Assembly: GCA_001782045.1 (NCBI GenBank)
Contig: MFNK01000003.1
Coordinates: 269,049-333,048, forward strand
Source of the DNA: Candidatus Levybacteria bacterium RIFCSPHIGHO2_01_FULL_36_15b
GTDB taxonomy: Bacteria; Patescibacteriota; Microgenomatia; Levybacterales; UBA12049
Reading direction: 5' to 3'
DNA length: 64,000 nucleotides
Shown here piece by piece: positions 1 to 46,771 of the stretch. A program made the position numbers and the translations under genes. The notes under the pieces are model-generated. The model saw only the letters and a program-made list of their open reading frames with translations. It ran no database searches and was not told the origin of the DNA. The number at the start of each line of letters is the position of its first letter. Positions within the stretch are counted from its first letter, which is position 1.

Positions 1-1819
1 AATCGGGATGATACTTTTCTGAAAAGTTTAGATAAAACGGTTCAGTTTTTTTGTCAAGAGTAATTGAATAATGAGAAGTATTATTGGTAGTGAAATTTGA
101 TTTCTTAAATGTGCCTTCATTATGCAGGCTTTCTTTTTCTGGTGTCATATAAATAAGGGGTCTTAAGTTATTATTTCTAAAAACTGCAATGCTTTCAGTA
201 TCAATATTCACTTGTTCTAAATAATCTACAGTGCTCAAATACTCTCTTAAACTATCCCAGGATTTTGCACTTATGTCTGAGTCTGCGTGTTCATTACTCT
301 TCAGAGTTATAACTACGTACCCATAAGAGCCTAGGGATAGCAATTTCTTTCCTATTTCAGATGCAAAAAGAGTTTTAAGCTTCTCTCCTTCAACGTTAGA
401 AGAATCCAAATCTATAGATTTATCAAGGTCCTCTATTGATACTTTCCAGTTTTTTAATGTCGCGACATTTGCCGAAATTACTGGAGTTTTATTACTCGAT
501 ATATCCCAGCGATGATCCATATTTATCCAGAACACCCTTGAATATTCATCTTGCCCTGTTAAAAAAGTATTCAGTTTTTCAACATCGGAAGGAACAGTTT
601 TCGGAACAAACACAGTTCCTATAGAACCTGTCAAAAATGGAACGGTATTCCATAGCGGCAACAAAACTATTAAAAATATAATTATGTATTTTGCAAATTT
701 ATGGTTTTCTAAATAATTAAACAGCCAAAGGGCAAAATAGCCTATCAATACCGAATAGCTCAACACAATTAAAAAATAAAACTTACCTGCTTCCCTAAAG
801 GCACTGAATCCCGGTATATAATCGTAAAATAAATTATAGATTTGTCCAAAAGGAGCACTATCTTGTTTTGCCAAAAAAATTCCAACTAATGCAAGTAGGC
901 CGAAGAAAAAAACTTGCTTATTTCTTCTACCAACTATTAATCCTAAGAATGCAACAATAGGAAATAACCAGAAATGTATTAGAATTGGCTGGACTACAAA
1001 CCAGGTTGTTTCTATTCCTGTCCAAAATGGATAAAAAAGAGAACCAACATTTTGAATATTAAAAAAATTACCTTCTATGATGGGTCTATTTAAAAATTCA
1101 TTGTTTGCAAGAGTGCCAGTTGTAAGATTAGGAATTATCCAATAAATATTCAGTATTAATAAGAGGATGAAAACAGAAAAAAATAGAGACAAATTTTTCT
1201 TGAGTTGAGTCCGCCAATTTTTTTCCAGAAAAAACTGATTGTAGAAAAAGTAAAGTAAAATAACTCCACTTACTATATAAAAAGTTCTAAAATCAACGGA
1301 TCCAGACGCAAACAATAAAAGTGTTGTAATCGGTATAAATAGTTTTTTCTTAGTTTCAAGCAAATAAATAAAAGAAAGAAAAGCAAAAGTACAACAAATA
1401 AATCCTAAAGGCAAAAATACGTGGCCCTGAGTTAATATTGAAAGAAAGTAAGTATTGTATGTGAAAATCAGTGACCCAACAAATCCTGCAATATTAGAAT
1501 TTGTAATTTTTCTTGTCAGCAAAAATCCCGCAATAGTACCTAGTATTGCGATTGGCCAGAATATTAAAAACTTCTCGGCAATATTTCCATCAAACCCTAA
1601 CTGTCCAAATAAACCGTATAGAAATCTAAAAGGATATTCCCATAACGTTACCCCCCCTTTCCAAAAGGAAGGGAAAATAAAATCCTTAATTGCGGCATTC
1701 GAACGGAAAACCCAGTCAGCATAAGAAAAGACAGAGAATGAAAACCATTCTTTATACACGATAATAGAAATAATCAACAGAAACTCAAGGGGGAGAAATT
1801 TCAATAATAATTTTTTCAC
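1..1819 (-). CDS. Partial (C-terminus off the left edge) paralog of the ~730-aa polytopic membrane protein family A, probably a GT-C-like glycosyltransferase with a C-terminal extracytoplasmic domain
   Basis: Manual minus-strand translation from a GTG/TTG start near 1819 gives ...KKLLLKFLPLEFLLIISIIVYKEWFSFSVFSYADWVFRSNAAIKDFIFPSFWKGGVTLWEYPFRFLYGLFGQLGFDG.... The frame stays open wherever I checked down to position 1. The product parallels 2813-4993 and 14826-17048 (shared ...FxAFREA.KFY... and ...EPFYLNFSES... segments). It is absent from the ORF track only because no stop falls inside the window. Confidence 0.6.
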   Translation of the reverse strand, partial: MKKLLLKFLPLEFLLIISIIVYKEWFSFSVFSYADWVFRSNAAIKDFIFPSFWKGGVTLWEYPFRFLYGLFGQLGFDGNIAEKFLIFWPIAILGTIAGFLLTRKITNSNIAGFVGSLIFTYNTYFLSILTQGHVFLPLGFICCTFAFLSFIYLLETKKKLFIPITTLLLFASGSVDFRTFYIVSGVILLYFFYNQFFLEKNWRTQLKKNLSLFFSVFILLLILNIYWIIPNLTTGTLANNEFLNRPIIEGNFFNIQNVGSLFYPFWTGIETTWFVVQPILIHFWLFPIVAFLGLIVGRRNKQVFFFGLLALVGIFLAKQDSAPFGQIYNLFYDYIPGFSAFREAGKFYFLIVLSYSVLIGYFALWLFNYLENHKFAKYIIIFLIVLLPLWNTVPFLTGSIGTVFVPKTVPSDVEKLNTFLTGQDEYSRVFWINMDHRWDISSNKTPVISANVATLKNWKVSIEDLDKSIDLDSSNVEGEKLKTLFASEIGKKLLSLGSYGYVVITLKSNEHADSDISAKSWDSLREYLSTVDYLEQVNIDTESIAVFRNNNLRPLIYMTPEKESLHNEGTFKKSNFTTNNTSHYSITLDKKTEPFYLNFSEKYHPD

Positions 1820-1845
1820 TTTTTTTTCAAAGACTATTACGTCTT

Positions 1846-2715
1846 CTAGGAGTTTTTATTTTTAAACTTTAAGTCAAATAGTTGGTAAATTACTCCAGCG
1901 ACCAACACAAAAAAGGCTATTACTGTAAGGTCCATAGAGAGCTGCGTTTTTTTTAGGTAATATACAATTGCTGCTAAGTTAATTATTAAAATTCCAAAGA
2001 TAATAATTAATGCTGACATGTTCTTTTTTGCCCAGCTTAAATTAAAAATTTTTAATTGATTTAAACCAAGATTAATTAAAAATAAGGAAAGAATTATAAA
2101 ATTAACATAAATTCCAGTTCCTATTAAGGTTGGGAAGCCTAACTCTATCTTTTCAATTTTTTCCTCCATTATATAACCTACTAGATTAGAGGGATTTGAA
2201 AACAGATAACTTTTAGGATATTGGTATAAAACTGCGCCCAAGGGTTCTACAGAACTAATACCGATTGAATGTTCCGGTTTCCCATCCAAAGACTCAACTT
2301 CAAAGATATAGGTTTTTGCTTTAGAATTAGAGATAACAGGAAAGCCAAAAGGGAAAAGCATATTAGGTTGAAACTGGCCTGTTGTGTATGCGCTTTCATA
2401 ATACCAATCTTTGGCTCCTTCTTCTTTAATCCTGAAAACAACACTATCCGGATTGATTCTCTGGAAGTTGTAAAAACGAATAGAAACCTGTCCCAAAAAA
2501 TCGTTAGTTGCAATAAAGCTACCTTGAAGCTTCTCACCTTTTATTAGTTCTCCGTAGTCAACGTTCTCAACCTGAAAGTTGCCCGGAGCCTTGGTTGTTA
2601 CAGAAAAAGCTTCTTCCCCTAAGTTGGTTTGAACAACAGTTAAATTAGATGCACTGTAAATATAAACAGCAGTCAAAAATATGAAAAATAATAAGAGTGT
2701 AATTTTTTTTATCAT
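1846..2715 (-). CDS. Hypothetical exported, membrane-anchored protein (N-terminal signal anchor, ~200-aa extracytoplasmic domain, 3 C-terminal TM helices)
   Basis: 289-aa ORF. It has a hydrophobic N-terminus (LLLFFIFLTAVYIY) and a hydrophobic C-terminal third. The stop at 1846-1848 was verified. It sits between two family-A membrane genes. Confidence 0.55.
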   Translation of the reverse strand: MIKKITLLLFFIFLTAVYIYSASNLTVVQTNLGEEAFSVTTKAPGNFQVENVDYGELIKGEKLQGSFIATNDFLGQVSIRFYNFQRINPDSVVFRIKEEGAKDWYYESAYTTGQFQPNMLFPFGFPVISNSKAKTYIFEVESLDGKPEHSIGISSVEPLGAVLYQYPKSYLFSNPSNLVGYIMEEKIEKIELGFPTLIGTGIYVNFIILSLFLINLGLNQLKIFNLSWAKKNMSALIIIFGILIINLAAIVYYLKKTQLSMDLTVIAFFVLVAGVIYQLFDLKFKNKNS

Positions 2716-2812
2716 GGTTCTTTCTTATAAAAATATAAAGATGAGTCCAATATTATTACTGTTAAGACAGCATCATTATTATAAAGCTTTTTACCTGAAA
2801 TGAAATAGTTCT

Positions 2813-4993
2813 TCACTCATCTTTCCTCTTCTTAATATTCATTACACCGTAATAAGACAGATATCCAGTGACTGCCAGTAAAGTAGTAAGACTCACTATT
2901 CCACCAAGATAGAGGTATAACTGAGGTTTAAAATAAACCGTCGCTTCGATATTATAACTGCCATCAGAATTTTGCTCGCAAGCTATTTGCTTGCAAATAG
3001 ATATGGGACTTAAGAGAAATGAATTAAGGGTAGCATCATTTTCAAAATGATTGCTGTCTGGAATTTGAATCATGGAGTCTTTATGTTCGGAAACTGTGAG
3101 AACTTTCCACCATGCAAAGTCTCCTACGTAAACTGTCCAATCGGGATGGTAACTTTCGGAGAAATTTAAGTAAAAAGGTTCTTTAACATTTTTTAAACTC
3201 ACAGAATATTGTGTGGGATGAACAAACTCATATGAAACCTTTTCAAAAGGAATTTCTTTTCTGATTGTTTCCTTCTCTTGTGTTATGTATAGATGGGGCA
3301 TAAAGTTCTCATTTTCATAAACAGCTAAGTCTTTCGTTCCTATATCTATTTTCTTAAGCCAAGTAATCTTATTCAGACTGTTTATGTAGTACTGTCTGGG
3401 TTCCCCGTAGTGTACAAAAAAGTCATCATCATTAGCCTTATCTTGGATTGGAACATAAACATATCTTATCGAAGACAATTTAAACAAATTTGGAGTATTT
3501 TTATAATTCAAAAAAGATAAAGTTTGCTGGGCTTGATTTGAATTATCATCTGATAAGAAGCTATTAAATAGATTCTTCCACTCAATATTTACAATATCAA
3601 TCAAGCTAATTTCCGGGTGAATATTTGTAAAGAAAGTCCACTTTGAAACTTTAGGTATCCAAAGAGTTCTAAAATAATCTGATTGTTTATTTATAAAATC
3701 TTTATTAACTATATAATCTTTTGGTATCGTGCGTGTGACAAAGAGGGTTCCTATCTCCCCTGTGATCAAAGGTTTCGTATTCCATAAAAATATTGCAATG
3801 ATTAGAATCGTAAGAAAATATTTTCCATAAACACTCATTCTAGTTTTTTTCCAATTCTTCCATAACCATGCCACAAAACCGGTAATCAGTACAGAATAAC
3901 CCAGAGCTGTAAGGGGATAAAACTTACTTGCTTCCCTAAAAGCATCAAATCCTGGCAAATGCAAATAAAGCCACAAATACAAACCTGGAAAAGGGGCTCC
4001 TGATTGTTTTGTTAGTAGAATACCCAAAAGAGCAAGTAAACCAAAAAATATTACAATTTTATTCTTTCTATTTAGATATAATCCCAAAAATGCAACAATA
4101 GGTATCAACCAATAATAAATAGGGATTTGTTGAGGATTAAATACTGCAGGTAAAGAACCTGACCAGAATGATTGGTAAAGCGTAATTGAATATAAAATGT
4201 TTGAAAATCCATCACCGAATAAACCTCTATGGAAGAGATCACTATTTGTTAAAGACCCCGAATGGGAAAGTCCCATTATCCAATAAGAACTAAGGAGAAA
4301 AGCGATTATTGCGGGTACCAGACCGACAGTAAATTTGTGAATTAAATGCCGTAATTGTTTTTTATTATTAATAAATAGTAAGTAGTAAATAAAATACATA
4401 GATAATATAATTCCCATTACATATCCCGCCCTAGTCTCATAAGAAATTATGATAAATAAAGATAGGGCTGTGAGCAATATATAAACTAATTTTTCTCTAT
4501 CTAGACTCTCTATGTAAAAAAATATTACTAGAGGAAACAAGGCAAAAGCTGCCATTAAGGTTAAGGTTCCAGTCTGCAAAATAAGAAAATACGTATTGAA
4601 ACTATAAATCAGAATACCTGTAACTACTGCGGCCTTATTCTTAAATAATTTATTAAGAAGAAAATATGAAGAAATTGGAGATAAAATTACAGCCGGCCAA
4701 AAATGAATGAGTCTTTCCGACAAAGCATAACTTAAGCCAAAATACTTTGAGAGTATTCCATATAACGCGTACGTTGGTGCTTGACTAACATCTACAATTA
4801 CACGACCAAAAGAAGCATCTCCTAACCATAGTGTGAAATAATATAAACGAAGACTGCTCATGGTTTCTTCAAAGAAAAAAATCCAATCTCCGCTCGTTAA
4901 AATTTCCAGGTTCAAGAACCAAGTGTGGTATACCACCATATAGATGACTATTAAAAAAATCATCCAGGACAAATGTTTTATCTTGTTAAACAT
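2813..4993 (-). CDS. Family A polytopic membrane protein (726 aa): N-terminal ~12-TM domain plus ~300-aa C-terminal extracytoplasmic domain and a terminal TM; putative GT-C-like glycosyltransferase
   Basis: Long hydrophobic N-terminal half and a hydrophilic C-terminal domain ending in the TM LYLGGIVSLTTLLAVTGYL. Paralogous to 14826-17048 and to partial 1-1819, with nucleotide-level similarity (e.g. aaacttac(c/t)tgcttccctaaa). Confidence 0.8.
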   Translation of the reverse strand: MFNKIKHLSWMIFLIVIYMVVYHTWFLNLEILTSGDWIFFFEETMSSLRLYYFTLWLGDASFGRVIVDVSQAPTYALYGILSKYFGLSYALSERLIHFWPAVILSPISSYFLLNKLFKNKAAVVTGILIYSFNTYFLILQTGTLTLMAAFALFPLVIFFYIESLDREKLVYILLTALSLFIIISYETRAGYVMGIILSMYFIYYLLFINNKKQLRHLIHKFTVGLVPAIIAFLLSSYWIMGLSHSGSLTNSDLFHRGLFGDGFSNILYSITLYQSFWSGSLPAVFNPQQIPIYYWLIPIVAFLGLYLNRKNKIVIFFGLLALLGILLTKQSGAPFPGLYLWLYLHLPGFDAFREASKFYPLTALGYSVLITGFVAWLWKNWKKTRMSVYGKYFLTILIIAIFLWNTKPLITGEIGTLFVTRTIPKDYIVNKDFINKQSDYFRTLWIPKVSKWTFFTNIHPEISLIDIVNIEWKNLFNSFLSDDNSNQAQQTLSFLNYKNTPNLFKLSSIRYVYVPIQDKANDDDFFVHYGEPRQYYINSLNKITWLKKIDIGTKDLAVYENENFMPHLYITQEKETIRKEIPFEKVSYEFVHPTQYSVSLKNVKEPFYLNFSESYHPDWTVYVGDFAWWKVLTVSEHKDSMIQIPDSNHFENDATLNSFLLSPISICKQIACEQNSDGSYNIEATVYFKPQLYLYLGGIVSLTTLLAVTGYLSYYGVMNIKKRKDE

Positions 4994-5021: not shown

Positions 5022-6212
5022 CTAGTTTACTCTCGCAATATCAGATAAGACTTTATGAAGACGCTTATATATTCTTCCTGGGTCGAATCTAGCCTCGGTA
5101 ATTTCTTTAATCAATTCTACTTTAAAAATACCCTTATTTCTTGAAATTTGGATTATCTTTTTTGCAAATTCCTTATTACTACTGACAAGAAATCCCGTTT
5201 TATTCTGCTCGATTATATCACGAGGACCTGCGGGCATATTAAACGCAATTACGGGCAATCCTGCCGCCTGAGCCTCCAGAACACTATATGAAAACGTTTC
5301 CCACTTACTAGTACAGATAAATAAATCATTTTCTTTATAAATACTCGGCATGTATCTATGCTCTACGGATCCCATATAATTCACGTTATTCCATCTCTCA
5401 GCTGACTTAATAATTTTCTCTCTAAGAACCTTACTTCCGTCACCAATAATATTAAAAATAAACTGATTTTCATATCCTCTTAAATTAAGATAGTCAATCA
5501 CGGACAATAAGTCAGGAATTCCTTTCCCTTCTGCAAGTCTACCGACCCATAGAATATTGAGTTTTTTCTTATCCCAATTATGGTTAAACTTACTGTTTCT
5601 TCTAGTATTATTTGTTTTAAAATCTAAGGCATTATAAATCTTAACTATGTTCTTAGCGGGCATTAACCTTCTAAGATATTGCTCATCAGAACTGTTAAGC
5701 ACGTGAAACGCCTTAACATCTGATGTTAAAAATCTGTAAATGAAACCGCTATAGAGAAAATTATGCAGTTTCGATTGTAAAGATTTTGTTTCCGGGTAAT
5801 AAAAAGGTGTATGACAACCAAATATAACTGGAGGTAAATTTTCATATCCAACTAGGAATTTTAAAATAAAGGCTTCCAGAACTTCATTTTTGCTGTAAAT
5901 TACATCATATTCCTGAAGCTTCTTTCGAAGTGATCTTATAGAATCTACTTTAAAATAACCAGCGTCGCCTAAATTTTCCTCGATGTTCTTTTTGCTCTCT
6001 TTATAAATAAGACTCATGTCCATTTTTGATACAAAAGATAAATAGAATATATGAGTCAATCTCATGATTGTTAAGGCGAACTTATCATCCATGGTGACAA
6101 CGTCTGCTTTGACCGAAGGTAATTTAGATAAATTAGATGAGGTTTCGATAAAATACTTCGCAAGTCCTCCACCATGCTCTAGAAAAAATACAGTAAAAAA
6201 GGCTACTTTCAT
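5022..6212 (-). CDS. Glycosyltransferase family 4 (GT-B fold)
   Basis: GRLAEGKGIPDLL... and the E-x7-E region ...TFSYSVLEAQAAGLPVIAFNMPAGPRDII. Confidence 0.8.
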   Translation of the reverse strand: MKVAFFTVFFLEHGGGLAKYFIETSSNLSKLPSVKADVVTMDDKFALTIMRLTHIFYLSFVSKMDMSLIYKESKKNIEENLGDAGYFKVDSIRSLRKKLQEYDVIYSKNEVLEAFILKFLVGYENLPPVIFGCHTPFYYPETKSLQSKLHNFLYSGFIYRFLTSDVKAFHVLNSSDEQYLRRLMPAKNIVKIYNALDFKTNNTRRNSKFNHNWDKKKLNILWVGRLAEGKGIPDLLSVIDYLNLRGYENQFIFNIIGDGSKVLREKIIKSAERWNNVNYMGSVEHRYMPSIYKENDLFICTSKWETFSYSVLEAQAAGLPVIAFNMPAGPRDIIEQNKTGFLVSSNKEFAKKIIQISRNKGIFKVELIKEITEARFDPGRIYKRLHKVLSDIARVN

Positions 6213-6291: not shown

Positions 6292-7284
6292 ATGATAAAC
6301 CAGCATATTACAATATTCATTCCAACATACAATAACGAGACAACTATTTTAGATACCCTACAAAGCATAGAAAGACAGAAAACAAATCAGATTCGTAAAA
6401 TAATCATTATCGATGATGGGTCAACTGATCAAACTATAGATCTTATTAATAATCATATTAAAACTTCTCACATTGAATTCAATTTTATCAAGAACACCAA
6501 ACCAACAGGATTGTCTAGAAAATATAATAAGGCAATTGATTTAGTTAAAACAGAGTTATTGATAATAATGCACGCTGATATTGTAATAGAGAGAAATAAT
6601 GCTATAGAAAAATATTATAAAATTATGGAAAACGAAAGCAATGTTGCGGCCATAAGTAAGATTAGACATAGATTCGAAGACTGGAAAAAATTTACTTTTT
6701 GGGAAAAATGTGAATTCGATAGATTCCTCATGTCTCAAAGGCATTTTCTTGCTGCCAAATTTGATATTTATAGAGTTTCTGCTCTTAAAAAAGTCGGTAA
6801 GTTTGATGCAGAAAAATATTACGCGGGAGGAGAGGATGCTGATTTGTGGTTAAAACTAGAGAAATTAGGAAACATCATAAAATCAGAAAACGTGTATATA
6901 CATAAACAATCTTTCGCTAAAGATTATTCTCTTTTTAGATTAATTTATAGAAGTGCAAGATATGCAGAAGCGGCAGGGGCAGTACTTAAAAACCATTACA
7001 GTCAATATAGTCTTATAGATCTAATGTTACTTTTCTTCAGAGAATTTCTAACTTTATTTTTCGTAATTGGACTTGTCATCTATTTATTATTTGAAATATC
7101 TCTATTGCTAATTGCAGCAATATTTTTATTTATATTGTTTTCTTTTGCAAACACGAAAAATACTTATTTATATTCTGGTATGAACCCAAGAATTTTAATT
7201 TTACCTTTCGTCAATGTTTGCTTAATCTTTGTAAGCAATTTTTTTGTTCTCAGAGGGTTCATAAGGGGTAAAGAAGTTTTATAA
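6292..7284 (+). CDS. Glycosyltransferase family 2 with C-terminal transmembrane segments
   Basis: N-terminal IFIPTYNNETTILDTLQSI...IIIIDDGSTDQT (GT-A DxD region). The C-terminal ~80 aa are hydrophobic. Confidence 0.8.
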   Translation: MINQHITIFIPTYNNETTILDTLQSIERQKTNQIRKIIIIDDGSTDQTIDLINNHIKTSHIEFNFIKNTKPTGLSRKYNKAIDLVKTELLIIMHADIVIERNNAIEKYYKIMENESNVAAISKIRHRFEDWKKFTFWEKCEFDRFLMSQRHFLAAKFDIYRVSALKKVGKFDAEKYYAGGEDADLWLKLEKLGNIIKSENVYIHKQSFAKDYSLFRLIYRSARYAEAAGAVLKNHYSQYSLIDLMLLFFREFLTLFFVIGLVIYLLFEISLLLIAAIFLFILFSFANTKNTYLYSGMNPRILILPFVNVCLIFVSNFFVLRGFIRGKEVL

Positions 7285-9380: not shown

Positions 9381-9761
9381 GTGGAAAAAATAGCATATAA
9401 AAATAACTTAATAGCTCTTCGGCTAAAAAAAATTAAAAATGGAGTAATGTCTTTTACTGAACCAAGCGAGCCGATACAGCTTGTAACTCATAAAAGGTCC
9501 TTGGGAGAATACACAAAGGCGCACCTTCATTCACCCAAGAAACGTACTACGAATAAACTGCAGGAGTGCTTAGTTCTTATAAAGGGAAAGATAAAAATTG
9601 ACTTATATAATAGTGAGAAAAAATACTTCAAGTCTATTTTCATATCAGCAGGAGAAGCTGTTATATTCGTTAGTGGAGGACATGGTGTGCATATACTCGA
9701 GGACAGCGAAATTATAGAGATTAAGAATGGCCCTTTTATCGAAGATAAGGTTTTAATTTAA
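9381..9761 (+). CDS. Small cupin-fold protein, WxcM/FdtA-like sugar-nucleotide ketoisomerase/epimerase-like
   Basis: 126 aa with a His-x-His region (KAHLHSP) and C-terminal ...GGHGVHILEDSEIIEIKNGPF. Paralog of 18191-18589. Confidence 0.5.
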   Translation: MEKIAYKNNLIALRLKKIKNGVMSFTEPSEPIQLVTHKRSLGEYTKAHLHSPKKRTTNKLQECLVLIKGKIKIDLYNSEKKYFKSIFISAGEAVIFVSGGHGVHILEDSEIIEIKNGPFIEDKVLI

Positions 9762-10483: not shown

Positions 10484-11710
10484 ATGTTGGCAAAAAAATG
10501 CATTGTCTGCAGTAAATCAAATTTAACAAGAGTGATTGAGCTAGGTTTTCATCCATTAGCTGACACTTTCCTCAAAAAAGAACAACTATTGACTCCCCTA
10601 AGTACGTATCCACTCAACTGCTTACTCTGCAAAAACTGTGGACATTTACAGAATGAATACTTTACCTCAAGAGAAGAAAGATATATAGAAAGTAATTATA
10701 GCTATACATCTTTCAATTCAGAAACGGCAATAAAACATTGGATTGAGTTTTTCAATAATGTAAGTAAATATACTAACTTAAGCACTTCCGATCACGTAAT
10801 AGAATTCGGCTCAAACGACGGACATTTGCTTTCACATTTCAAAAAGAAAGGCGTTAAGGTGACTGGCATTGACCCTTCCCCCATTATGACCAGCCAGGCA
10901 AGAAAAATAGGCGTTGACTCAATAGCGGGGTTTGTAGGAAAAGATACAATCTCAACTGCTATAAAAATTAAAGGTAAAGCAAAAATAATCATGGGAAATA
11001 ACGTTCTGAATCATATTGAAAATTTAAAATCAGCCATGGACGGAGTAGTACAAGGCCTAAAGAAAGATGGCTATTTTGTTTTTGAAGTACCATCTTTAAA
11101 AGATACTTTAGAAAAATACTTGTTTGATATGATATTTCATGAGCATGTTTCTACGTTTAGCGTGCGCTCGGCAGATACGATGCTTAAAAGATACGGGCTT
11201 TACATTACGCATGTTGAGTACATAAACTACCATGGTGGCTCGCTAAGATTCATTTCTAGTCTAAATTCATCAGACTATAATTTCTCTCTTGTAAGTAAAT
11301 TTATTGAAGCGGAAGAGAAAGCAAAAATATTCAAACCAGAAACGTATACCAAGTTTATGGCAAAAATAGCTAAAGACCGGAATGATGTTTTGGCAAAGAT
11401 ATATAGCCTTAAGAAGCAGGGTAAAAAAATAGCCGCCGTTGGGGCTGGCGCAAGAAGTAATACGCTCCTAAACTTCTATAGACTCGATAAATATTCAGTC
11501 GAATTTGTTACAGACGCTTCAATGCATAAGATTGGAAAGTATACCCCCGGATCTTTTTTACTTATAAAAGATGACACTAGCCTTAAGAAAGAAAATATCG
11601 ACGTGGTTTTAATAACCGCTTGGAATATTGGTAAATATTTAACTCAGAAAATAAAGAATATAAATGATAAACTAGAAGTTATTGTCCCTGGAGAAAAAGA
11701 ACTATTGTGA
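10484..11710 (+). CDS. NDP-hexose C-methyltransferase-like (TylC3/NovU-type: Zn-ribbon + class I SAM MTase + C-methyltransferase C-terminal domain)
   Basis: N-terminal CIVCSKS...CKNCGHLQ zinc-ribbon-like Cys pairs and the SAM motif VIEFGSNDGHLL. Its 408-aa length is typical of sugar C3-methyltransferases. Confidence 0.65.
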   Translation: MLAKKCIVCSKSNLTRVIELGFHPLADTFLKKEQLLTPLSTYPLNCLLCKNCGHLQNEYFTSREERYIESNYSYTSFNSETAIKHWIEFFNNVSKYTNLSTSDHVIEFGSNDGHLLSHFKKKGVKVTGIDPSPIMTSQARKIGVDSIAGFVGKDTISTAIKIKGKAKIIMGNNVLNHIENLKSAMDGVVQGLKKDGYFVFEVPSLKDTLEKYLFDMIFHEHVSTFSVRSADTMLKRYGLYITHVEYINYHGGSLRFISSLNSSDYNFSLVSKFIEAEEKAKIFKPETYTKFMAKIAKDRNDVLAKIYSLKKQGKKIAAVGAGARSNTLLNFYRLDKYSVEFVTDASMHKIGKYTPGSFLLIKDDTSLKKENIDVVLITAWNIGKYLTQKIKNINDKLEVIVPGEKELL

Positions 11711-12141
11711 AGAAAACTAAAATTAAAATAGCTACGGAAGATGATCGAGGTAATATCTCTGATATTTTTTATAACCATCCGATTGATCACGTGGCAATTA
11801 TCCGTTCAAAGAAGGGAACATTCCGCGGAGACCACTATCATAAATTCACTACCCAGCATATATACATGGTGAAGGGGAGTCTAAGGTATTATTTTCGAAA
11901 AGTAGACGAAGATAATAGCAAGGTAAGAAGCACTATTATCCACGAGGGAGAACTAGTAACAACTGTCCCCAACGAAATACATGCTCTCGAAATGATTGAA
12001 GATAATCAATTCATAGCTTTTTCAGAAGGCAAGAGAGGCGGAGATGATTATGAATCAGATACTTTTCGGGTCTCTCCATCTATAATGAAAAACTACAGAA
12101 AAATTCACCCTACTGGCTCTGCAGGAAGACCTAAAAAATAG
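11707..12141 (+). CDS. FdtA/QdtA-like cupin (NDP-4-keto-6-deoxyhexose 3,4-ketoisomerase-like)
   Basis: 144 aa with the R-G-x-H-x-H motif (FRGDHYHKF) of FdtA-type isomerases. Confidence 0.6.
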   Translation: MKKTKIKIATEDDRGNISDIFYNHPIDHVAIIRSKKGTFRGDHYHKFTTQHIYMVKGSLRYYFRKVDEDNSKVRSTIIHEGELVTTVPNEIHALEMIEDNQFIAFSEGKRGGDDYESDTFRVSPSIMKNYRKIHPTGSAGRPKK

Positions 12142-13297: not shown

Positions 13298-13996
13298 TTA
13301 AGTATTTACTTTCTTATATTTAATAAAAATCCCCATAAAACCCTTTTTATTTGAATCATACTCCAATATTTCTTTATTAATTAAATTTCTACTAAAGAAT
13401 GGTCCCCTTCTGAATAACCATTTAGATGTATACAGATTTAAAAGACTTATTAACGTCCATATACCACCTTTTACAAATACCTCTTCTACTTGAAAATTGC
13501 TCTTCATTCCCAAATTTATAAGCTTCTCTGAGGTATAGTGCCTATGGCCAATTAACCACCAAGCGGGGTCTAAATACTTAGATAAAATTGAATCGTAGGG
13601 AGTAGACAAATAAAACTTCCCATTCTTTTTCAAAACGCGATTTACTTCTCTGAACATTCTATTTTCTGAATTATTTGGAATGTGCTCTATTACTTCCCAA
13701 GCAACAACAGTATCAAAATATTTATCTTTAAATGGTAGTTTTAATGCTCCACCGATTTTAAAAATTGCTCTATTATCTTTAATTGTTTTAGCAGCTTTTA
13801 AATCTTTTTTTGTTATCTCTATTCCGGTTATTTCCTTTACTCCTCTATTTAATGCATTCAACTCAAACCAACCAAAGCCACAACCTATGTCTAACACTTT
13901 TTTGTTCTGTATATCCGAATCATTAACAAAATTTATACTTTGCCTCAGTCTGGCATTTAATTCTAACACCGGCTTTTCATTCAAAATATTTTTCAT
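13298..13996 (-). CDS. Class I SAM-dependent methyltransferase
   Basis: VLDIGCGFGWF (motif I), ...KKNGKFYLSTP (motif post-II). Confidence 0.75.
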   Translation of the reverse strand: MKNILNEKPVLELNARLRQSINFVNDSDIQNKKVLDIGCGFGWFELNALNRGVKEITGIEITKKDLKAAKTIKDNRAIFKIGGALKLPFKDKYFDTVVAWEVIEHIPNNSENRMFREVNRVLKKNGKFYLSTPYDSILSKYLDPAWWLIGHRHYTSEKLINLGMKSNFQVEEVFVKGGIWTLISLLNLYTSKWLFRRGPFFSRNLINKEILEYDSNKKGFMGIFIKYKKVNT

Positions 13997-14826
13997 TTTC
14001 TTAGAATATAACCTATACCACCTACTGCAAATTCACACGTTTTCATAAATAACATTCCGATTCCGAGAAGTGGATTTGAGAATAGTTTACTGGGATTGGA
14101 GAAAAATAACTCATATCTTTTAATCAAACTCAGTTGTTGTTTTGTTTTTAAATTGTTTATTTTTTTAGAGGAATAACTATTTAACTGTTTAGAGTAATAC
14201 ATTTTCTTACTTAAAAGAGTCCCAAGAGATAGATTTCCTTCATTATGATTTATATAGCTTTTTATCCTTCCCAGTTGGTATTTTTTTTCAACTCTCTGGC
14301 TTAAATCCCAATCTTCTCCGCTAACCAAGCTGTCATCATATCCACCAGATTCGTTAAAAACATTTTTTGGGAAAAACCTAGCTGCCTCTAGCCAACCCAC
14401 CCCTTCATAGAAACTTCGCTCCAGAGCCTTGCATTGTGCCCAAAAACCTTTTCCAAAAGATTTTTCAGGAATAATTATACCTCCAATTTTTCGATCTGCA
14501 TTTTTTATTCTTTGTTCTTTGATGATTTTTACACAATCCTGTGCAACCCTTGGTGTTAATTCCATATCGCTATCTATGAAAAGTAGATGTTCGCCTTTTG
14601 CCTTTGATGCACCGAAGTTTCTCTGTACGCTTCTTTCCGGACCTTTATTAAAAACTAGTTTTGTGTACTTCTTTGCAATTTCTTTCGTTTTATCAGTAGA
14701 ATAATTATCAACAACTATTATTTCAATATTGTCATATGTCTGGTTCTTTATACTTTTAATACAAGCATCCAAAAAAACAGCAGAATTTTTTGTTGGAACA
14801 ATAATAGATAGTAAAGGATTTATCAT
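13993..14826 (-). CDS. Glycosyltransferase family 2
   Basis: LLSIIVPTKNSAVFLDACIKSIKNQTYDNIEIIVVDNYSTDKT and a FIDSDME acidic motif. The start overlaps the upstream stop by 1 nt (TAATG). Confidence 0.8.
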   Translation of the reverse strand: MINPLLSIIVPTKNSAVFLDACIKSIKNQTYDNIEIIVVDNYSTDKTKEIAKKYTKLVFNKGPERSVQRNFGASKAKGEHLLFIDSDMELTPRVAQDCVKIIKEQRIKNADRKIGGIIIPEKSFGKGFWAQCKALERSFYEGVGWLEAARFFPKNVFNESGGYDDSLVSGEDWDLSQRVEKKYQLGRIKSYINHNEGNLSLGTLLSKKMYYSKQLNSYSSKKINNLKTKQQLSLIKRYELFFSNPSKLFSNPLLGIGMLFMKTCEFAVGGIGYILRK

Positions 14827-17048
14827 TATTTTCCTATTATTTTAAATTTTAATCGCTTTGCACGAAATACTATTTTCAAAATATAGACAATCAGATAAAT
14901 AAACACTCCTATAAAAGTCGCCAGGGATATATACGTTCCAATATTTACTAGGTCTTGAGGTATATAGTAAAGTCTTAGATTAAAGTTTATACTTCCATCT
15001 GTATTTTTAGTGTAAGATTCTGTACTGTAATTTTTTATAATGTCTGTGGGGTTGATATAAAAAACATTAAATTGCATGTCTGTTTGCAAATGATCTTTGT
15101 CAGAGAGTTGATGCTTGCCTTCTAATTCCAAAGCCCAATCTTTCGCATAGGTATTATTAAAATTAAGGTACAGCGGTTTGTTTATATTTTTTATTTCTAT
15201 TGTGTATTCTGCAGCATTTATATACTTATAATCTACAACTTTATATGGAACTTTTTTATAAACAGTTTCCATTTCTTCTGTAATGTATATAAGAGGTTTA
15301 TAATTAAAATTTTCATATGCTACCATATCTTTTGTCCCAATATCTATTCTTTTAATAAAGTTTAAATTATCAAAAAAGTTAATAATAAAAGGACGATCGT
15401 TTATGCTTGTACCCAGAAACATATCGTCATCAGGAGTATCTTTATATTGTGGTGGGATAACAATATATTTCGTGCTAGTTATATCTAAAAAATTGTCGGA
15501 AAAACTTTGATTTAGTACTTCAAAATTCCAGGGTAGATCGGGAGCTACTTTAGTGGTGTTATATACATGTTCCTTATATTTAGGATTTTTTTTGAATTCC
15601 AAATACCACGCATAAGCATCGTAGTATATTACATAGCGTGGATGAAGATTGTCAAAATAGCTCCACTTGCTAAGCGCAGGAAACCATAATGTTCTAGAAA
15701 ATTGAGTATCATTTTCTAAGATCTCTGCCAAAATTTTGTAATCAGCTGGAAGACTGATGGTATTAAATAATCTCCCGATTTCTCCAGTGAAAAGAGGTTT
15801 TGCATTCCAAATAAAAACACTTGCTATTACAACAAGAATTAAATAACGAGCATAGAAGAAGTAGTTTCTACTTACTTTGATCTGCATTAGTGATTTTACA
15901 AAAGCTCCAATCAATACGCTATAACCAAGCGCTACTAGCATATAGAATTTGCTTGCCTCTCTATACGCATTAAAACCCGGAAAATGATTGTAAAGCCAAA
16001 GATATAAATGTGGAAAGGGGTTGTCCTCCTGTTTTGCCAGTAAAATTCCCAATGCCGCTATGAAAGCAAAAAACCAGACTTTTTTATTTCTATAGTTAAA
16101 TATCAGTCCGAGTGCTGCTATATTTGGTATTAACCAAAAATAGAATGGGATTTGTTGTACGGTAAATACCTTTAGGGATTCCCCTGTCCAGTAAGGATGA
16201 AAGAGCGTTACAGCATGCGAAAGATAGAAAAAATGACTTCCAAATAACGCACGGTCGAATGCCACATTATGGAATAAAGTATCAGAAAGATAAAAAGGCA
16301 TTATCCAGAAGGAGTTCAAAAGAAACATGACTACAAAAGGGATGATTCCAAACATCAAAGTAGAAAAAATTCGTTTAAAGTTACGGTTTTTTATATTTGA
16401 AAAAACCTTATAAACAACATAAAAGAGCATTATCCACAGTACTATATATAGTATTCTGAAATCGTAGGAACCTGCTATAAAGCCCACTAAGCCCACAATT
16501 AGGCTTAAAATCAATTTCTTATTATCGATGCTCTTTATGAATAAATAGAGGATTAAAGGGGTGAATCCATAAGCTACGGCCCATTGAGCTGTGCCTGTCT
16601 GTAAAACAAGTGCAGGCACATTATAACCATATACTAATGCACCAACAATAGCGGCAGTCTTATTTTTCAATAGATATGATATGAGCATAAAACTTCCAAT
16701 GAGAGACAGTATCGCCATGGGAACGAGATATACTAACTTAGAAGCAATTATTGTACTTTGGAAAAAAGTACAGAGACTACCATACATTAAACTGAGAGAT
16801 GGGTACATCGAAAGAACGAAGTTTATCCTACCAAAGCCGGAACCACTTGTGTCTAAGGTCCAAGCGCTAGGAGATGAATAGATATCTCTACAAGTATTAA
16901 TAAACCAACTGAATTGGGAGGTATCCCCGGAGGAAAAAATTTCATTCATGAAAATCCACCTCCAGTGTGTAATTAACGCTATAAGGACAAGAATCATTAC
17001 TGGATAATATTTTTTTATTATATGCACCATATAGATTACGATGTTCAA
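14826..17048 (-). CDS. Family A polytopic membrane protein (740 aa), paralog of 2813-4993
   Basis: Same architecture and shared segments (FNAYREASKFY, IDIGTKDMVAYENFNYKPLIYITEE, PLYLNFNNTY...). Confidence 0.8.
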   Translation of the reverse strand: MNIVIYMVHIIKKYYPVMILVLIALITHWRWIFMNEIFSSGDTSQFSWFINTCRDIYSSPSAWTLDTSGSGFGRINFVLSMYPSLSLMYGSLCTFFQSTIIASKLVYLVPMAILSLIGSFMLISYLLKNKTAAIVGALVYGYNVPALVLQTGTAQWAVAYGFTPLILYLFIKSIDNKKLILSLIVGLVGFIAGSYDFRILYIVLWIMLFYVVYKVFSNIKNRNFKRIFSTLMFGIIPFVVMFLLNSFWIMPFYLSDTLFHNVAFDRALFGSHFFYLSHAVTLFHPYWTGESLKVFTVQQIPFYFWLIPNIAALGLIFNYRNKKVWFFAFIAALGILLAKQEDNPFPHLYLWLYNHFPGFNAYREASKFYMLVALGYSVLIGAFVKSLMQIKVSRNYFFYARYLILVVIASVFIWNAKPLFTGEIGRLFNTISLPADYKILAEILENDTQFSRTLWFPALSKWSYFDNLHPRYVIYYDAYAWYLEFKKNPKYKEHVYNTTKVAPDLPWNFEVLNQSFSDNFLDITSTKYIVIPPQYKDTPDDDMFLGTSINDRPFIINFFDNLNFIKRIDIGTKDMVAYENFNYKPLIYITEEMETVYKKVPYKVVDYKYINAAEYTIEIKNINKPLYLNFNNTYAKDWALELEGKHQLSDKDHLQTDMQFNVFYINPTDIIKNYSTESYTKNTDGSINFNLRLYYIPQDLVNIGTYISLATFIGVFIYLIVYILKIVFRAKRLKFKIIGK

Positions 17049-17264: not shown

Positions 17265-18194
17265 ATGAAAATATTAGTTGCTGGCGGAACCGGATTCCTG
17301 GGACTCCACGTTGTAAATAGATTAAAGAAGGAGAATTTACCCTTTATAACTGCTTCTCTTTCTCAAGGTATCGATTTTAGAAATTATAAGCAGACGGAAA
17401 AATTCTTTAAAGAAAATAAAATAGATACTGTGATATATTGCGCTGCTTTTGTGGGAGGAATTTCCTATGGCTATGAGAAACCGGCAGAGAGCTATTACAA
17501 CAATATCCTGATGGCTACGAATTTAATAGAACTCTCCAGAATATATAAAGTTAAAAGGTTTATAAATCCTATCTCAAATTGCTCGTATCCAGGACACCTA
17601 ACGAAAAAACTCAAGGAAGAGTTATGGTGGGATGGACCACTTCATGAGTCTGTACTGGCCTACGGAATTGCTAGAAAAGCAAGTTGGGTACAGACTTGGG
17701 CATATAACAAGCAATATGGTATGGATTTTATTAATCTGATACTACCCAATATGTATGGACCTTCGGATCACTTCGACGAAAAAAAGTCTCATGTAATAGG
17801 TGCACTAATAATGAAGATGTGTGACGCAAAGGCAGAAGGTAGGAAAGATGTAATTGTCTGGGGTAGCGGAAAACCGATCCGAGAGTGGTTATACGTAAAA
17901 GACGCTGTGACGGTTATCTTAAAATCTATATCAATAACCCCAACTATAGAGCCAATAAATATTGGGATAGGCGAAGGTATTTCTGTAAGAGCACTCGCCG
18001 AATTAATTAAAGATATTGTGGGCTATAAAGGGAAGCTAGTTTACGATCCTACTAAGCCAGATGGGGCGCCCTATAAAATAATGGACAACAAAAGGATGAT
18101 TAAGCATTTTATGGGCTGGATTCCGCCCACTAAATTGAGAGATGGGATAGAAGAAACTGTTGAATGGTATTTGAATAATAAAAAGAAAGCATGA
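17265..18194 (+). CDS. fcl: GDP-L-fucose synthase (GDP-4-keto-6-deoxy-D-mannose 3,5-epimerase/4-reductase)
   Basis: MKILVAGGTGFLG, NMYGPSDHF, SHVIGALI, VIVWGSGKPIREWLYVKD and KPDGAPYKIMD all align with E. coli Fcl. Confidence 0.85.
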   Translation: MKILVAGGTGFLGLHVVNRLKKENLPFITASLSQGIDFRNYKQTEKFFKENKIDTVIYCAAFVGGISYGYEKPAESYYNNILMATNLIELSRIYKVKRFINPISNCSYPGHLTKKLKEELWWDGPLHESVLAYGIARKASWVQTWAYNKQYGMDFINLILPNMYGPSDHFDEKKSHVIGALIMKMCDAKAEGRKDVIVWGSGKPIREWLYVKDAVTVILKSISITPTIEPINIGIGEGISVRALAELIKDIVGYKGKLVYDPTKPDGAPYKIMDNKRMIKHFMGWIPPTKLRDGIEETVEWYLNNKKKA

Positions 18195-18589
18195 ATATAA
18201 TTAAAGGTGGGAAATTGTTTGCAATCATTCATAAGAAAGAGGATTGGAAAGAAGAATTAAACTTTCTCACTCCAAATGACATGTTTTGTCAAGTTGGAAC
18301 ATGGTGGTATCAAAAGAATAAACATCTTAAGGCACATAAGCATATTTATAATCCTCGTAAAGCTTCAATGACTCAGGAATGTGTGATCGTTATTGTTGGC
18401 AAAATTAAAGCTACAATTTTCGATAACAATGATAAAATTATTCATACGGATATACTTACAGCAGGAGACTTACTTGTTTGCTTCGAGGGAGGCCACAGCT
18501 ACGACATTTTGGAAGATGATACAAAAGTTATTGAATGCAAGAATGGACCATTCGTTTCTGTGGAAAAAGATAAGGTAACAATTGAATGA
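18191..18589 (+). CDS. Small cupin-fold protein, paralog of 9381-9761 (WxcM/FdtA-like)
   Basis: 132 aa with KAHKHIY (H-x-H) and ...EGGHSYDILEDDTKVIECKNGPF. Translationally coupled (ATGA overlap) to fcl. Confidence 0.5.
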   Translation: MNIIKGGKLFAIIHKKEDWKEELNFLTPNDMFCQVGTWWYQKNKHLKAHKHIYNPRKASMTQECVIVIVGKIKATIFDNNDKIIHTDILTAGDLLVCFEGGHSYDILEDDTKVIECKNGPFVSVEKDKVTIE

Positions 18590-19308
18590 TTTCAAATATA
18601 GTTTTATTTTCAGATAGAGAAGATGTTAAGCACTGCATCGCTTATTTAAGAAAAAAGGGAGTGCCTATTCTATATATAGTTTCCAACAAATTAAAAGACA
18701 GCAATTATAATTTAGAGATTAGAAAGAATATTGTAGATAGAGATTATAAAAATTCAATCTTAATATCATATTACTACGGAAGTTTAATAGAGAAAAAAAT
18801 TTTTAATCGTTTTAAGGTAGCAATCAATTTCCACCCCGCACCCCTCCCTTTATATAGAGGAGTTAAATGCGGTGTTCATGCAATACTAAACGAAGAAAAA
18901 AAATTTGGTGTCTCTTGTCACATCATTACTGAAAGATTTGATGATGGTGAAATTTTGGGCAAACTAGAGTTTCCAATAGATGATATTGAAACAGGATATT
19001 CAATTAATATAAAAAGCAGAAAGAAACTATATGATTTATTTAAAAGATACATAAATAAATATATATTTGGGGAAAATGTAAATATGTATGAAATACTAGA
19101 TAATATTAGTTATAATTTATCATCTCCAACTTATTTTTCTGGAAAAGATTTTGAAAAACTAAAATGTTTGGATGGAATTAATCCTTATTCTGTTTATGCA
19201 AAAAAAATAATAAGAGCTATGTGGCATCCTAAGTACATGGACACTTATTATACAAATAAAAAAAAGGAGAAAATCTATCTTTCACATACACCAGCTGAGG
19301 TGAGCTAA
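18586..19308 (+). CDS. Formyltransferase-domain protein, probable sugar N-formyltransferase
   Basis: INFHPAPLPLYRG (the N-x-H...HPS/A-LP-x-YRG N10-formyl-THF motif of Fmt/PurN/ArnA), followed by an Asp (DDGEI) at the expected spacing. Confidence 0.65.
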   Translation: MISNIVLFSDREDVKHCIAYLRKKGVPILYIVSNKLKDSNYNLEIRKNIVDRDYKNSILISYYYGSLIEKKIFNRFKVAINFHPAPLPLYRGVKCGVHAILNEEKKFGVSCHIITERFDDGEILGKLEFPIDDIETGYSINIKSRKKLYDLFKRYINKYIFGENVNMYEILDNISYNLSSPTYFSGKDFEKLKCLDGINPYSVYAKKIIRAMWHPKYMDTYYTNKKKEKIYLSHTPAEVS

Positions 19309-19310
19309 AT

Positions 19311-34508: not shown

Positions 34509-34510
34509 TT

Positions 34511-46476: not shown

Positions 46477-46537
46477 AGACTAATTCTATCAACTTTCAAT
46501 TTTTATTGCATAAAACTAAGACCTTCTCTATAATTAA

Positions 46538-46771
46538 GTGGTGAATAATTTTCTAATTCCGCAAATTCCCTCATTGCTTCTTTTTGCAGCTTTCCTTTGG
46601 ACTTTGCTTTGGAAAGGCATAGCACTATGGAGAGCCGCCAACTTAAAACAAAAGAATTGGTTTATAGCAATTCTTGTTTTAAACACGTTAGGAATTCTAG
46701 AGCTTGTTTACTTGTTTTATTTTGCTAAAAAAAGGCTTACCATACAAGAACTTAAATTTTGGGAAAAATAA
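46538..46771 (+). CDS. Possible small 2-TM membrane protein (77 aa, GTG start), PLDc_N-like pattern
   Basis: Two hydrophobic helices (LLLFAAFLWTLLW / WFIAILVLNTLGILELVYLFYF). Its 3' end overlaps the convergent gene 46697-49051 by 75 nt, which lowers confidence. Confidence 0.3.
   Translation: MVNNFLIPQIPSLLLFAAFLWTLLWKGIALWRAANLKQKNWFIAILVLNTLGILELVYLFYFAKKRLTIQELKFWEK

Follow-up and report, generated by a model that had tools for sequence, protein, structure and literature searches.

Family A, a large uncurated protein family of Patescibacteria with a predicted GT-C glycosyltransferase fold

Introduction

Three-component glycosylation systems, in which a GT-C glycosyltransferase is encoded in a cluster with a GtrB/ArnC-type synthase and a small multi-transmembrane (TM) protein, are exemplified by GtrA/GtrB/GtrC, CsbB/GtcA/YfhO and Citrobacter ORF15/14/12, the last of which uses a GT136 GT-C enzyme. 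Such systems with GT-C enzymes bearing a carbohydrate-binding module (CBM) are an established pathway, and a CBM is associated with the GT-C enzyme in the case of Citrobacter ORF12 (PMC11127046). A second described relative is AftD of the Mycobacteriales (PDB 6W98), which combines 11 TM helices, a soluble alpha/beta domain with a beta-sandwich and a single re-entry TM helix, and which requires K39, D41, E251, K361 and D474 (bioRxiv 10.1101/2019.12.22.885152). MmpA (Rv0226c/NCgl2761) is a homolog of the N-terminal TM region of AftD (PMC8698533), and is suspected, by Foldseek, to be a glycosyltransferase in a recent preprint (bioRxiv 10.64898/2026.07.31.741767). Here we describe Family A, three paralogous genes in a 64-kb stretch of DNA from Candidatus Levybacteria (the window, meaning the whole stretch of 64,000 nucleotides that was analysed), and compare this locus with the systems above.

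Candidatus Levybacteria belong to the Patescibacteria (Candidate Phyla Radiation, CPR), epibionts with tiny genomes whose surface contacts the host cell. To our knowledge, almost nothing is known about how these bacteria synthesize their envelope glycans. We consider it probable, at roughly 0.6, that Family A proteins are extracytoplasmic GT-C glycosyltransferases of Patescibacteria that act on a surface glycan in the style of the three-component systems. Family A is a new, large and uncurated family inside the known GT-C class, with a likewise unannotated partner protein, and overturns no concept.

Results

Family A is predicted to have a GT-C fold closest to that of AftD

All three Family A genes lie on the minus strand, at 1-1819 (copy 1), 2813-4993 (copy 2) and 14826-17048 (copy 3). 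Copy 2, our reference, encodes 726 aa and is identical to NCBI OGH35636.1, labelled 'hypothetical protein' in a Candidatus Levybacteria metagenome-assembled genome. Its AlphaFold2 (AF2) model, built from a 36-sequence alignment, has a mean predicted local distance difference test score (pLDDT) of 88.6 and a predicted TM-score (pTM) of 0.88. In this model, a core of 11 TM helices with a long first external loop (EL1) ends at about residue 404, and the EL4-like loop at residues 246-291 has low pLDDT, resembling the flexible loops of GT-C enzymes. The core is followed by a C-terminal domain of ~285 aa (residues ~405-690, positions 2924-3781, minus strand; pLDDT mostly >90), which the model places on the outward face. 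It consists of an alpha/beta subdomain (420-545) and then a beta-sandwich (547-688), with S508, Y511, D518, N521/D522, Y596, W619 and N657 as conserved residues. A C-terminal TM anchor (residues 691-725, positions 2819-2923, minus strand) and a basic cytoplasmic tail complete the protein. Copy 2 follows the AftD plan of TM1-11, a soluble GT-C domain and a re-entry TM12, as judged from the AF2 helices and hydropathy. A first-pass annotation, made from the sequence of the window, had described a 12-TM domain joined to a C-terminal extracytoplasmic domain of ~300 aa; the ectodomain stands, whereas the TM count becomes 11+1 rather than a core of 12.

When the model was compared with the PDB by Foldseek, the top match was AftD of Mycobacterium abscessus (6w98_A, E 8e-9, 645 aligned columns). 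STT3 of the yeast (6ezn_F, 1.6e-6) and human oligosaccharyltransferases (OST) came next, then PglB (3rce, 1.5e-5), with DPY19 (7zli, a C-mannosyltransferase), ALG12 (9s6t) and ArnT (5ezm) as further matches. From AftD to ArnT, these GT-C matches range from E 8e-9 to 9e-4, each with a probability of 1.0. The match to the Emb fold (EmbA/B/C) was not significant (E 0.18, probability 0.33-0.38, root-mean-square deviation (rmsd) 23 A), and neither were matches to transporters (probability near 0.1). Whole-protein Pfam and PDB sequence searches gave no match that would support an unrelated-enzyme fold for the C-terminal domain. On the model, Family A has a GT-C superfamily fold of the class A type. 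The first-pass annotation had likened these proteins to STT3/PglB/AglB or to YfhO/EmbC-type enzymes and had asked for structure prediction and a Foldseek comparison. The comparison upholds a GT-C protein with a periplasmic domain (Foldseek probability 1.0), though not membership in those families; the Emb-like assignment is abandoned at a Foldseek probability of 0.3-0.4, and the closest relative, AftD/MmpA, had not been among the candidates named.

At the level of sequence, profile searches place Family A in no curated family. Pfam STT3 (PF02516) scored 11.6 bits with copy 2 (E 0.19), against a cutoff of 24.5, and did not match copies 1 and 3. A scan of all three paralogs for a WWD/WWDYG motif (regex WW[DE] or W[WFY]D[YFW]G) found none, in agreement with the earlier remark that no such motif was obvious; with the STT3 score below cutoff as well, membership in STT3/PglB/AglB is rejected. 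Pfam YfhO (PF09586) gave no match at E<=1 for any copy, although two YfhO-like paralogs of the window, scanned as a positive control, scored 78 and 120 bits, and the suggested YfhO membership falls with this result. The STT3 trace aside, Family A is the GT-C-like family of the window without any Pfam return even at E<=1; other membrane proteins of the window without a Pfam match at E<=0.01 are those at 26899-28041 and 32859-34508. What all three paralogs do match, weakly, is the NCBIfam profile of MmpA (NF053599), with E 4e-9 (copy 1), 1.5e-5 and 6e-7. These matches are partial (~residues 139-461) and, at 23.8-35.7 bits, do not reach the curated cutoff of 210. The evidence from sequence thus agrees with that from structure in pointing to AftD/MmpA as the nearest part of the GT-C superfamily.

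The comparison with the known proteins is one of shared plan and differing parts. Besides its architecture, AftD shares with Family A an acidic residue after TM1 (D41 versus D36), a conserved Lys in a later loop, and an association with glycan-binding modules. However, AftD has ~1,400 aa and Family A ~700 aa, their hosts are Mycobacteriales and Patescibacteria, respectively, and their sequence similarity is far under the family cutoffs. AftD carries three CBMs in cis, whereas the copies in the window end after TM12 and carry none; CBM_4_9 occurs in cis only in longer homologs, and the CBM-like domain of Family A loci lies on a separate partner protein or, in other lineages, is fused. Likewise, the C-terminal TM13-16 bundle of AftD, which binds acyl carrier protein, is not found in cis in Family A, where a TM module is separately encoded, and no genes of the decaprenyl-phospho-arabinose pathway were seen with Family A. 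STT3/PglB/AglB resemble Family A in their GT-C class A fold, EL1 Asp and periplasmic mixed alpha/beta domain (Foldseek E 1e-6 to 5e-5), but Family A lacks WWDYG, has a terminal TM anchor after its soluble domain, and lies in a context that points to monosaccharide-phosphate-lipid donors. The YfhO family is also polytopic, GT-C-like, of similar length, equipped with a terminal TM anchor and found in loci for wall-glycopolymer decoration; its members in the window are the genes at 43163-45412, 46697-49051 and 60335-62722 (minus strand), not Family A.

Invariant residues outline a candidate active site

An acidic residue in the first loop had been named beforehand as a feature on which a GT-C assignment would turn. 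It is present as D36 (motif S-G-D-W; codon at 4886-4888 of copy 2, minus strand), which lies in the first extracytoplasmic loop, right after TM1, and is invariant in 36/36 homologs and all three paralogs. From its conservation and position in the sequence, we propose D36 as the catalytic or metal-binding Asp. All 36 homologs likewise share R188, Y191, K329, R353, E354 and K357, and 34 of the 36 have D or E at D426, where the soluble domain begins. Conservation within Family A is highest in a loop between TM9 and TM10 (3923-4009, minus strand), which runs from K329-Q330 through P-G-F-x-A-F-R353-E354-A-S-K357-F. This region overlaps the NCBIfam MmpA match, and would be where the phosphate and sugar of the donor are bound.

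Family A is widespread in Patescibacteria and unnamed

A profile search over 1.84 billion cluster representatives (50%-identity clusters) returned 8,615 proteins at E<=1e-3, of which 1,843 are found at E<=1e-30. Their annotation reads 'hypothetical protein' only: no source gives a name, and no Pfam or NCBIfam model exists. Our literature search on GT-C enzymes in Patescibacteria found no prior description among the papers covered. For the gene neighbourhood, 81 loci on one-genome-per-species contigs were sampled, with 8-10 kb around each. A lineage is given in the record title of 80 of these, and nearly all are Patescibacteria, including Levyibacteriota, Moran-, Woese-, Ames-, Doudna- and Saccharibacteria, WWE3 and the cultured Minisyncoccus archaeiphilus. 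The exceptions are ~17 TPA-assembly records titled 'uncultured Gammaproteobacteria' and a few titled Bdellovibrionales, Bacteroidia or Limisphaerales. We suspect that these titles are wrong. Gammaproteobacteria or Bdellovibrionales titles are borne by many of the closest loci (L002, L004, L007, L009 and others), and are probably mistaken, as the Family A, partner and GT2 genes there are Patescibacteria-like.

About one-fifth of the sampled members are 900-1,500 aa long and carry additional domains, inserted behind the conserved core. CBM_4_9 was detected in two longer members, P0074 (34.6 bits) and P0168 (44.3 bits), and LysM in one, P0096 (839 aa), at residues 638-681 of the extracytoplasmic part (25.5 bits versus a cutoff of 20.9). 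The latter hints that some Family A members dock on peptidoglycan. Given the CBM_4_9 and LysM domains of long members and the CBM-like domain of the partner described below, these modules are counted as support for a glycan acceptor.

Homologs with 40-44% identity were also observed in archaea, namely P0079 of the methanogen isolate Methanococcoides sp. AM1 and P0102 (locus L014) of a Pacearchaeota (DPANN), which suggests transfer between Patescibacteria and archaea. Minisyncoccus archaeiphilus PMX.108 (L060), a cultured parasite of archaea, encodes a Family A member of 1,272 aa.

A partner protein with a conserved TM module adjoins Family A

The 289-aa partner protein (1846-2715, minus strand) is encoded between copies 2 and 1. 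In agreement with the first-pass annotation, it is a small membrane-anchored protein flanked by two Family A copies. Its AF2 model shows an N-terminal TM helix, a beta-sandwich ectodomain (~residues 27-167) and three C-terminal TM helices, with a pLDDT of 73 overall and of 80-94 in the sandwich. The best Foldseek matches of the sandwich are CBM6, CBM36, CBM4 and CBM35 (E 2e-5).

Partner homologs of 328-407 aa begin at, or a few bases from, the Family A stop codon in ~22 of the 81 loci. The partner profile also detects the C-terminal TM module as free-standing proteins of 100-177 aa (motifs HPIPSR and AE..A.YAYY), encoded directly 3' of a Family A gene or directly 5' of an ArnC-like GT2 gene, the latter in 10 loci. 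The partner or its TM module is found in 51/81 loci, almost always on the strand of the Family A gene; if only the 64 loci with >=3 kb of sequence downstream are counted, the number is 42. Run against the 52 open reading frames (ORFs) of the window, which include ~20 polytopic membrane proteins, the profile gave no other match at E<=10; hydrophobic bias is therefore not the cause of the partner matches. The partner and the small TM proteins have no Pfam or NCBIfam match, and a homolog search with the small-TM alignment returned unnamed proteins only.

The partner had been suggested to be either an acceptor or an accessory subunit. Since loci conserve the TM module whether or not an ectodomain accompanies it, we take the partner to be probably an accessory component rather than a glycosylation target. 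The subunit option fits the conserved gene adjacency to Family A, while the acceptor option is unlikely, because the TM module also occurs without the ectodomain beside Family A genes in many genomes. The TM module could be an enzyme subunit, comparable to a separate AftD TM13-16 bundle, or the flippase of the system. The idea that one and the same CBM occurs in cis in some members and in trans in others was also tried: the partner hidden Markov model (HMM), run with --max against ~270 family members (~54 of them >=900 aa), gave no match at E<=1. Hence this idea is supported at the level of fold class only.

A putative lipid-sugar synthase and a glycan locus surround Family A

Locus L083, a metagenome contig (JGI 3300025323), is the reverse complement of the window, identical over 14,993 nt, and continues beyond position 1. 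There, 90 nt downstream of copy 1 and outside the window, lies a gene for a 311-aa GT2 protein with two C-terminal TM helices (L083:15344-16279). Its ortholog in the relative L001 matches ArnC over its full length (E 2e-53), PgfS (3e-40) and AglJ (1e-24), all below the equivalog cutoffs. ArnC, PgfS and AglJ are polyprenyl- or dolichyl-phosphate sugar synthases. An ArnC-like GT2 gene occurs in 35/81 loci, on the same strand as Family A in 34 and on the opposite strand in 1. The other genes of the locus recur less in the 80 other loci, sugar-nucleotide genes in 0-11 and a Wzx flippase in 16; with such recurrence limited to 0-16/80, it is the small TM module and the lipid-sugar synthase that are conserved next to Family A. 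By analogy with the described systems, these two beside Family A would form the make-up of a three-component extracytoplasmic glycosylation system, and the ArnC/GtrB-type GT2 context would imply a lipid-phosphate-linked donor on the extracytoplasmic face.

The locus differs from the known three-component systems in several respects. No similarity to GtrA or to any Pfam family was detected for the small TM protein, which in some cases carries a fused CBM-like ectodomain; the GT-C enzyme belongs to none of the families that those systems use; and two GT-C paralogs are present per one partner and one GT2. An ORF and hydropathy scan found no free-standing small multi-TM (GtrA-like) gene in the window, where Pfam was run on some ORFs only.

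Taken as a whole, the 64-kb window is a glycan locus, with genes for GT2 and GT4 enzymes, Gmd and RmlD (both above cutoff), a fucose-synthase-like short-chain dehydrogenase/reductase (SDR), a DegT aminotransferase, a formyltransferase, C- and O-methyltransferases and two Wzx flippases. At least four other polytopic GT-C-like families are present (YfhO, three times; PMT_2-like; PTPS_related; and a GT2-PMT_2 fusion). Two candidates for the donor pathway were tried within this inventory. A formamido-sugar donor, suggested by the ArnC-like GT2 together with the formyltransferase and aminotransferase genes at 18586-20417, is not family-wide, as the latter two recur in 0/80 and 8/80 loci. A possible donor synthase is the GT2 at 6292-7284, which has C-terminal TM segments, but it is dissimilar to the ArnC-like GT2 and has weak N-terminal matches only.

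The three copies are old paralogs

That the first-pass annotation was right to see three paralogs of ~730 aa, one of them truncated by the window edge, is confirmed at the level of ORFs and of pairwise BLASTP, whose E-values of 1e-76 to 1e-150 put the paralogy far above chance. Copy 1 starts with GTG at 1819 and has 606 aa visible, its C-terminus lying past window position 1. The extension of the contig that had been asked for was obtained from L083, where the overlap with the window is identical and the full gene (L083/L082:13175-15253) encodes 692 aa, with the same terminal TM anchor as copy 2; copy 1 matches the family profile at E 4e-174. Copy 3 encodes 740 aa from a TTG at 17048, but its likely start is the ATG at 17030, used in public gene calls, which gives 734 aa. 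It matches the family profile at E 1e-247.

The first-pass annotation had further reported stretches of near-identical nucleotide sequence and a recent duplication. These claims are refuted by the data: the proteins are 30-36% identical, the best DNA repeats between copies measure 44-54 nt at 61-82% identity, and the longest exact words common to the copy pairs are 14, 11 and 12 nt. With at most 14 nt shared exactly and such protein identity, recent duplication and gene conversion are both ruled out. Furthermore, copy 2 is 44-52% identical to proteins of other genomes (44-48% for those from other Patescibacteria) versus 34-36% to its own paralogs. Because copy 2 is nearer to proteins of other genomes than to its own paralogs, the duplications are old. 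The three copies are old paralogs and probably differ in donor, acceptor or linkage.

Discussion

Proposed mechanism and the points that weigh against it

Upon the observed fold, invariant residues, topology, gene neighbourhood and taxonomic spread, we infer a donor type, an acceptor type and a role for each residue and for the partner as follows. A GT2 at the cytoplasmic face, of the ArnC/GtrB/AglJ type and encoded 3' of copy 1, would charge polyprenyl phosphate with a sugar, and the lipid-linked sugar would then be flipped to the outer face of the membrane. There, Family A would move the sugar to an external acceptor by means of Asp36 in external loop 1, aided by K329 and the R353-E354-K357 loop at the interface of membrane and periplasm. 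The acceptor would most likely be a surface or cell-wall glycopolymer made by the 64-kb glycan locus, rather than the Asn of a protein, and it may be held by the C-terminal alpha/beta and beta-sandwich domain together with the CBM-like ectodomain of the partner.

Several points weigh against this proposal. The evidence for the activity of Family A is computational throughout. The resemblance of its sequence to characterised GT-C proteins is marginal, with MmpA at 24-36 bits versus a cutoff of 210, and the family profile, searched against PDB sequences, returned nothing but a spurious YbeY (E 1.7). MmpA itself is a protein without demonstrated glycosyltransferase activity (PMC8698533). The correspondence of D36, K329 and D426 to D41, K361 and D474 of AftD is plausible as a match by position only. 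The model of the partner is of moderate confidence (pLDDT 73), and its CBM matches have TM-scores of ~0.5 when normalised to the target and ~0.27 when normalised to the query, at an rmsd of ~6 A. Copy 3 has neither the partner nor a GtrB-like gene adjoining it. Finally, in more than half of the loci the 8-10 kb sampled contain no ArnC-like GT2, and its 35/81 is a raw count.

Alternative explanations

Three alternatives were considered, and all are less likely than a glycosyltransferase acting on a surface glycan. In the first, which we hold to be rather improbable, Family A is a GT-C enzyme whose acceptor is something other than the polysaccharide of the locus: a glycolipid (as for ArnT or PimE), peptidoglycan, or a teichoic-acid-like polymer (as for YfhO/CsbB). 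ArnT is indeed a significant fold match and ArnC the best model for the adjacent GT2, yet enzymes of the ArnT/PimE type are without a large beta-sandwich or CBM apparatus. In the same vein, a peptidoglycan-binding LysM is found on one homolog, and proteins of the YfhO and PMT_2 families are encoded in the window, but Family A itself does not match YfhO even at E<=1, and the CBM_4_9 insertions and CBM-like partner argue for a polysaccharide. These counterpoints do not separate the glycan of the locus from a wall polymer.

The second alternative, that Family A is an OST of the STT3/PglB/AglB kind, which would transfer a lipid-pyrophosphate-linked oligosaccharide en bloc to Asn (or Ser/Thr) with the partner as acceptor or subunit, is in our judgement unlikely. 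The structural match to STT3 and PglB is strong (E 1.6e-6 to 4.7e-5, probability 1.0), but that to AftD is better. The sole Pfam trace of the family is STT3 (E 0.19), at 11.6 bits against 24.5 and without WWD/WWDYG in any paralog. The window does contain two Wzx-type flippases for lipid-pyrophosphate-linked oligosaccharides; the conserved neighbour, however, is a GT2 of the type that synthesizes polyprenyl-monophosphate sugars. Family members bear glycan-binding CBM_4_9 or LysM domains, and in many loci the TM module of the partner occurs without the ectodomain, hence no acceptor protein is conserved.

Equally unlikely is the third, in which Family A is a non-enzymatic, transport-associated membrane scaffold that organises an envelope-assembly complex, as proposed for MmpA in trehalose-lipid export: MmpA is the only significant curated sequence match and its described role is in lipid transport, with catalysis not shown (PMC8698533), and AftD has a scaffold role with TmaT (bioRxiv 10.64898/2026.07.31.741767), but the EL1 Asp and the charged periplasm-facing loop residues are invariant in 36 diverse homologs, as expected of a GT-C active site, MmpA is glycosyltransferase-like by Foldseek in the same preprint, Patescibacteria are without a mycomembrane, and the linkage to a lipid-sugar synthase gene is conserved.

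Implications

A more specific version of the surface-glycan proposal is tentative and, in our estimate, less likely to be right than wrong. Here, Family A, the small TM family (sometimes CBM-fused) and the GtrB/ArnC-like GT2 would constitute a three-component system for surface glycosylation, so far undescribed and widespread in Patescibacteria, with the small TM protein as a new flippase for polyprenyl-phosphate-linked sugars or as an obligatory subunit resembling TM13-16. If either role of the small TM protein were true, Family A and its partner could be seen as a 'split mini-AftD', an evolutionary relative of the mycobacterial arabinan machinery.

With a GT-C assignment, a candidate active site, a partner and a neighbouring donor synthase, thousands of unannotated genes become testable enzymes, and Family A gains a distant link to AftD/MmpA of the mycobacterial envelope. 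The family offers a way into the study of how Patescibacteria build their envelope glycans. The prediction can be tested, since cultured or tractable Patescibacteria (Minisyncoccus archaeiphilus PMX.108 and Saccharibacteria) carry homologs.

Other genes of the window

Next to the Family A genes lie two further glycosyltransferase genes, both on the minus strand. A GT4 gene (5022-6212; Pfam Glycos_transf_1, E 1e-30) is directly upstream of copy 2, with which it probably forms one operon. A soluble GT2 (13993-14826; Pfam Glycos_transf_2, E 7e-27) has no predicted TM segments, and the start of its gene overlaps the copy 3 stop. The gene order is conserved in the relative L001, at 92% identity. 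Neither a tRNA nor an Rfam match was found in the window.

The window is rich in other polytopic membrane proteins, with ~20 of them, mostly GT-C-like, within 64 kb of a bacterium with a small genome. The three YfhO paralogs are 31-35% identical to one another; the two that were scanned match PF09586 (E 7e-22 and 2e-34), and those at 46697-49051 and 60335-62722 have a predicted terminal TM anchor. At 30547-32859 (minus strand), a 770-aa fusion joins an N-terminal GT2 (Pfam E 8e-24) to a 12-TM PMT_2-like GT-C (E 2e-6), and may represent a lipid-sugar synthase joined to its GT-C consumer. Sets of paralogous polytopic proteins of 510-570 aa occupy 28997-40950 and 53762-60396 (minus strand). The set starting at 37664, 39328, 57051 and 58687 is PMT_2-like where scanned (37664-39331), that at 34511, 53762 and 55417 is PTPS_related where scanned (34511-36151), and that at 28997, 32859 and 36148 shows a sub-threshold PMT_2 trace in one member only.

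Several smaller genes were also observed. A 77-aa ORF at 46538-46771 (plus strand) has two predicted TM helices (…WKGIALWRAANLKQKNWF…NTLGILELVYLFYF…); it lies mostly inside the intergenic gap at 46476-46697, whose flanking genes are on the other strand, and could encode a genuine small membrane protein. A 144-aa ORF at 11707-12141 (plus strand), whose start overlaps the stop of a C-methyltransferase gene, matches only the C-terminal part of Polysacc_synt_C/WbcJ-type proteins; because it is conserved in L001 and L083, it is taken to be a stand-alone domain or an old fragment. Two small paralogs of 126-132 aa at 9381-9761 and 18191-18589 (plus strand), 35% identical, have sub-threshold matches to WbuC-family cupins, and both lie within operons for sugar-nucleotide modification. 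Past window position 1, L083:16855-18726 encodes a 623-aa protein with a soluble N-terminal domain (a faint DUF3863 match) and a TM-rich C-terminal half, which is conserved in L001, with none found in the 80 other loci. Next in L083 come genes for a GT4, a hexapeptide acyltransferase and a protein of >1,054 aa.

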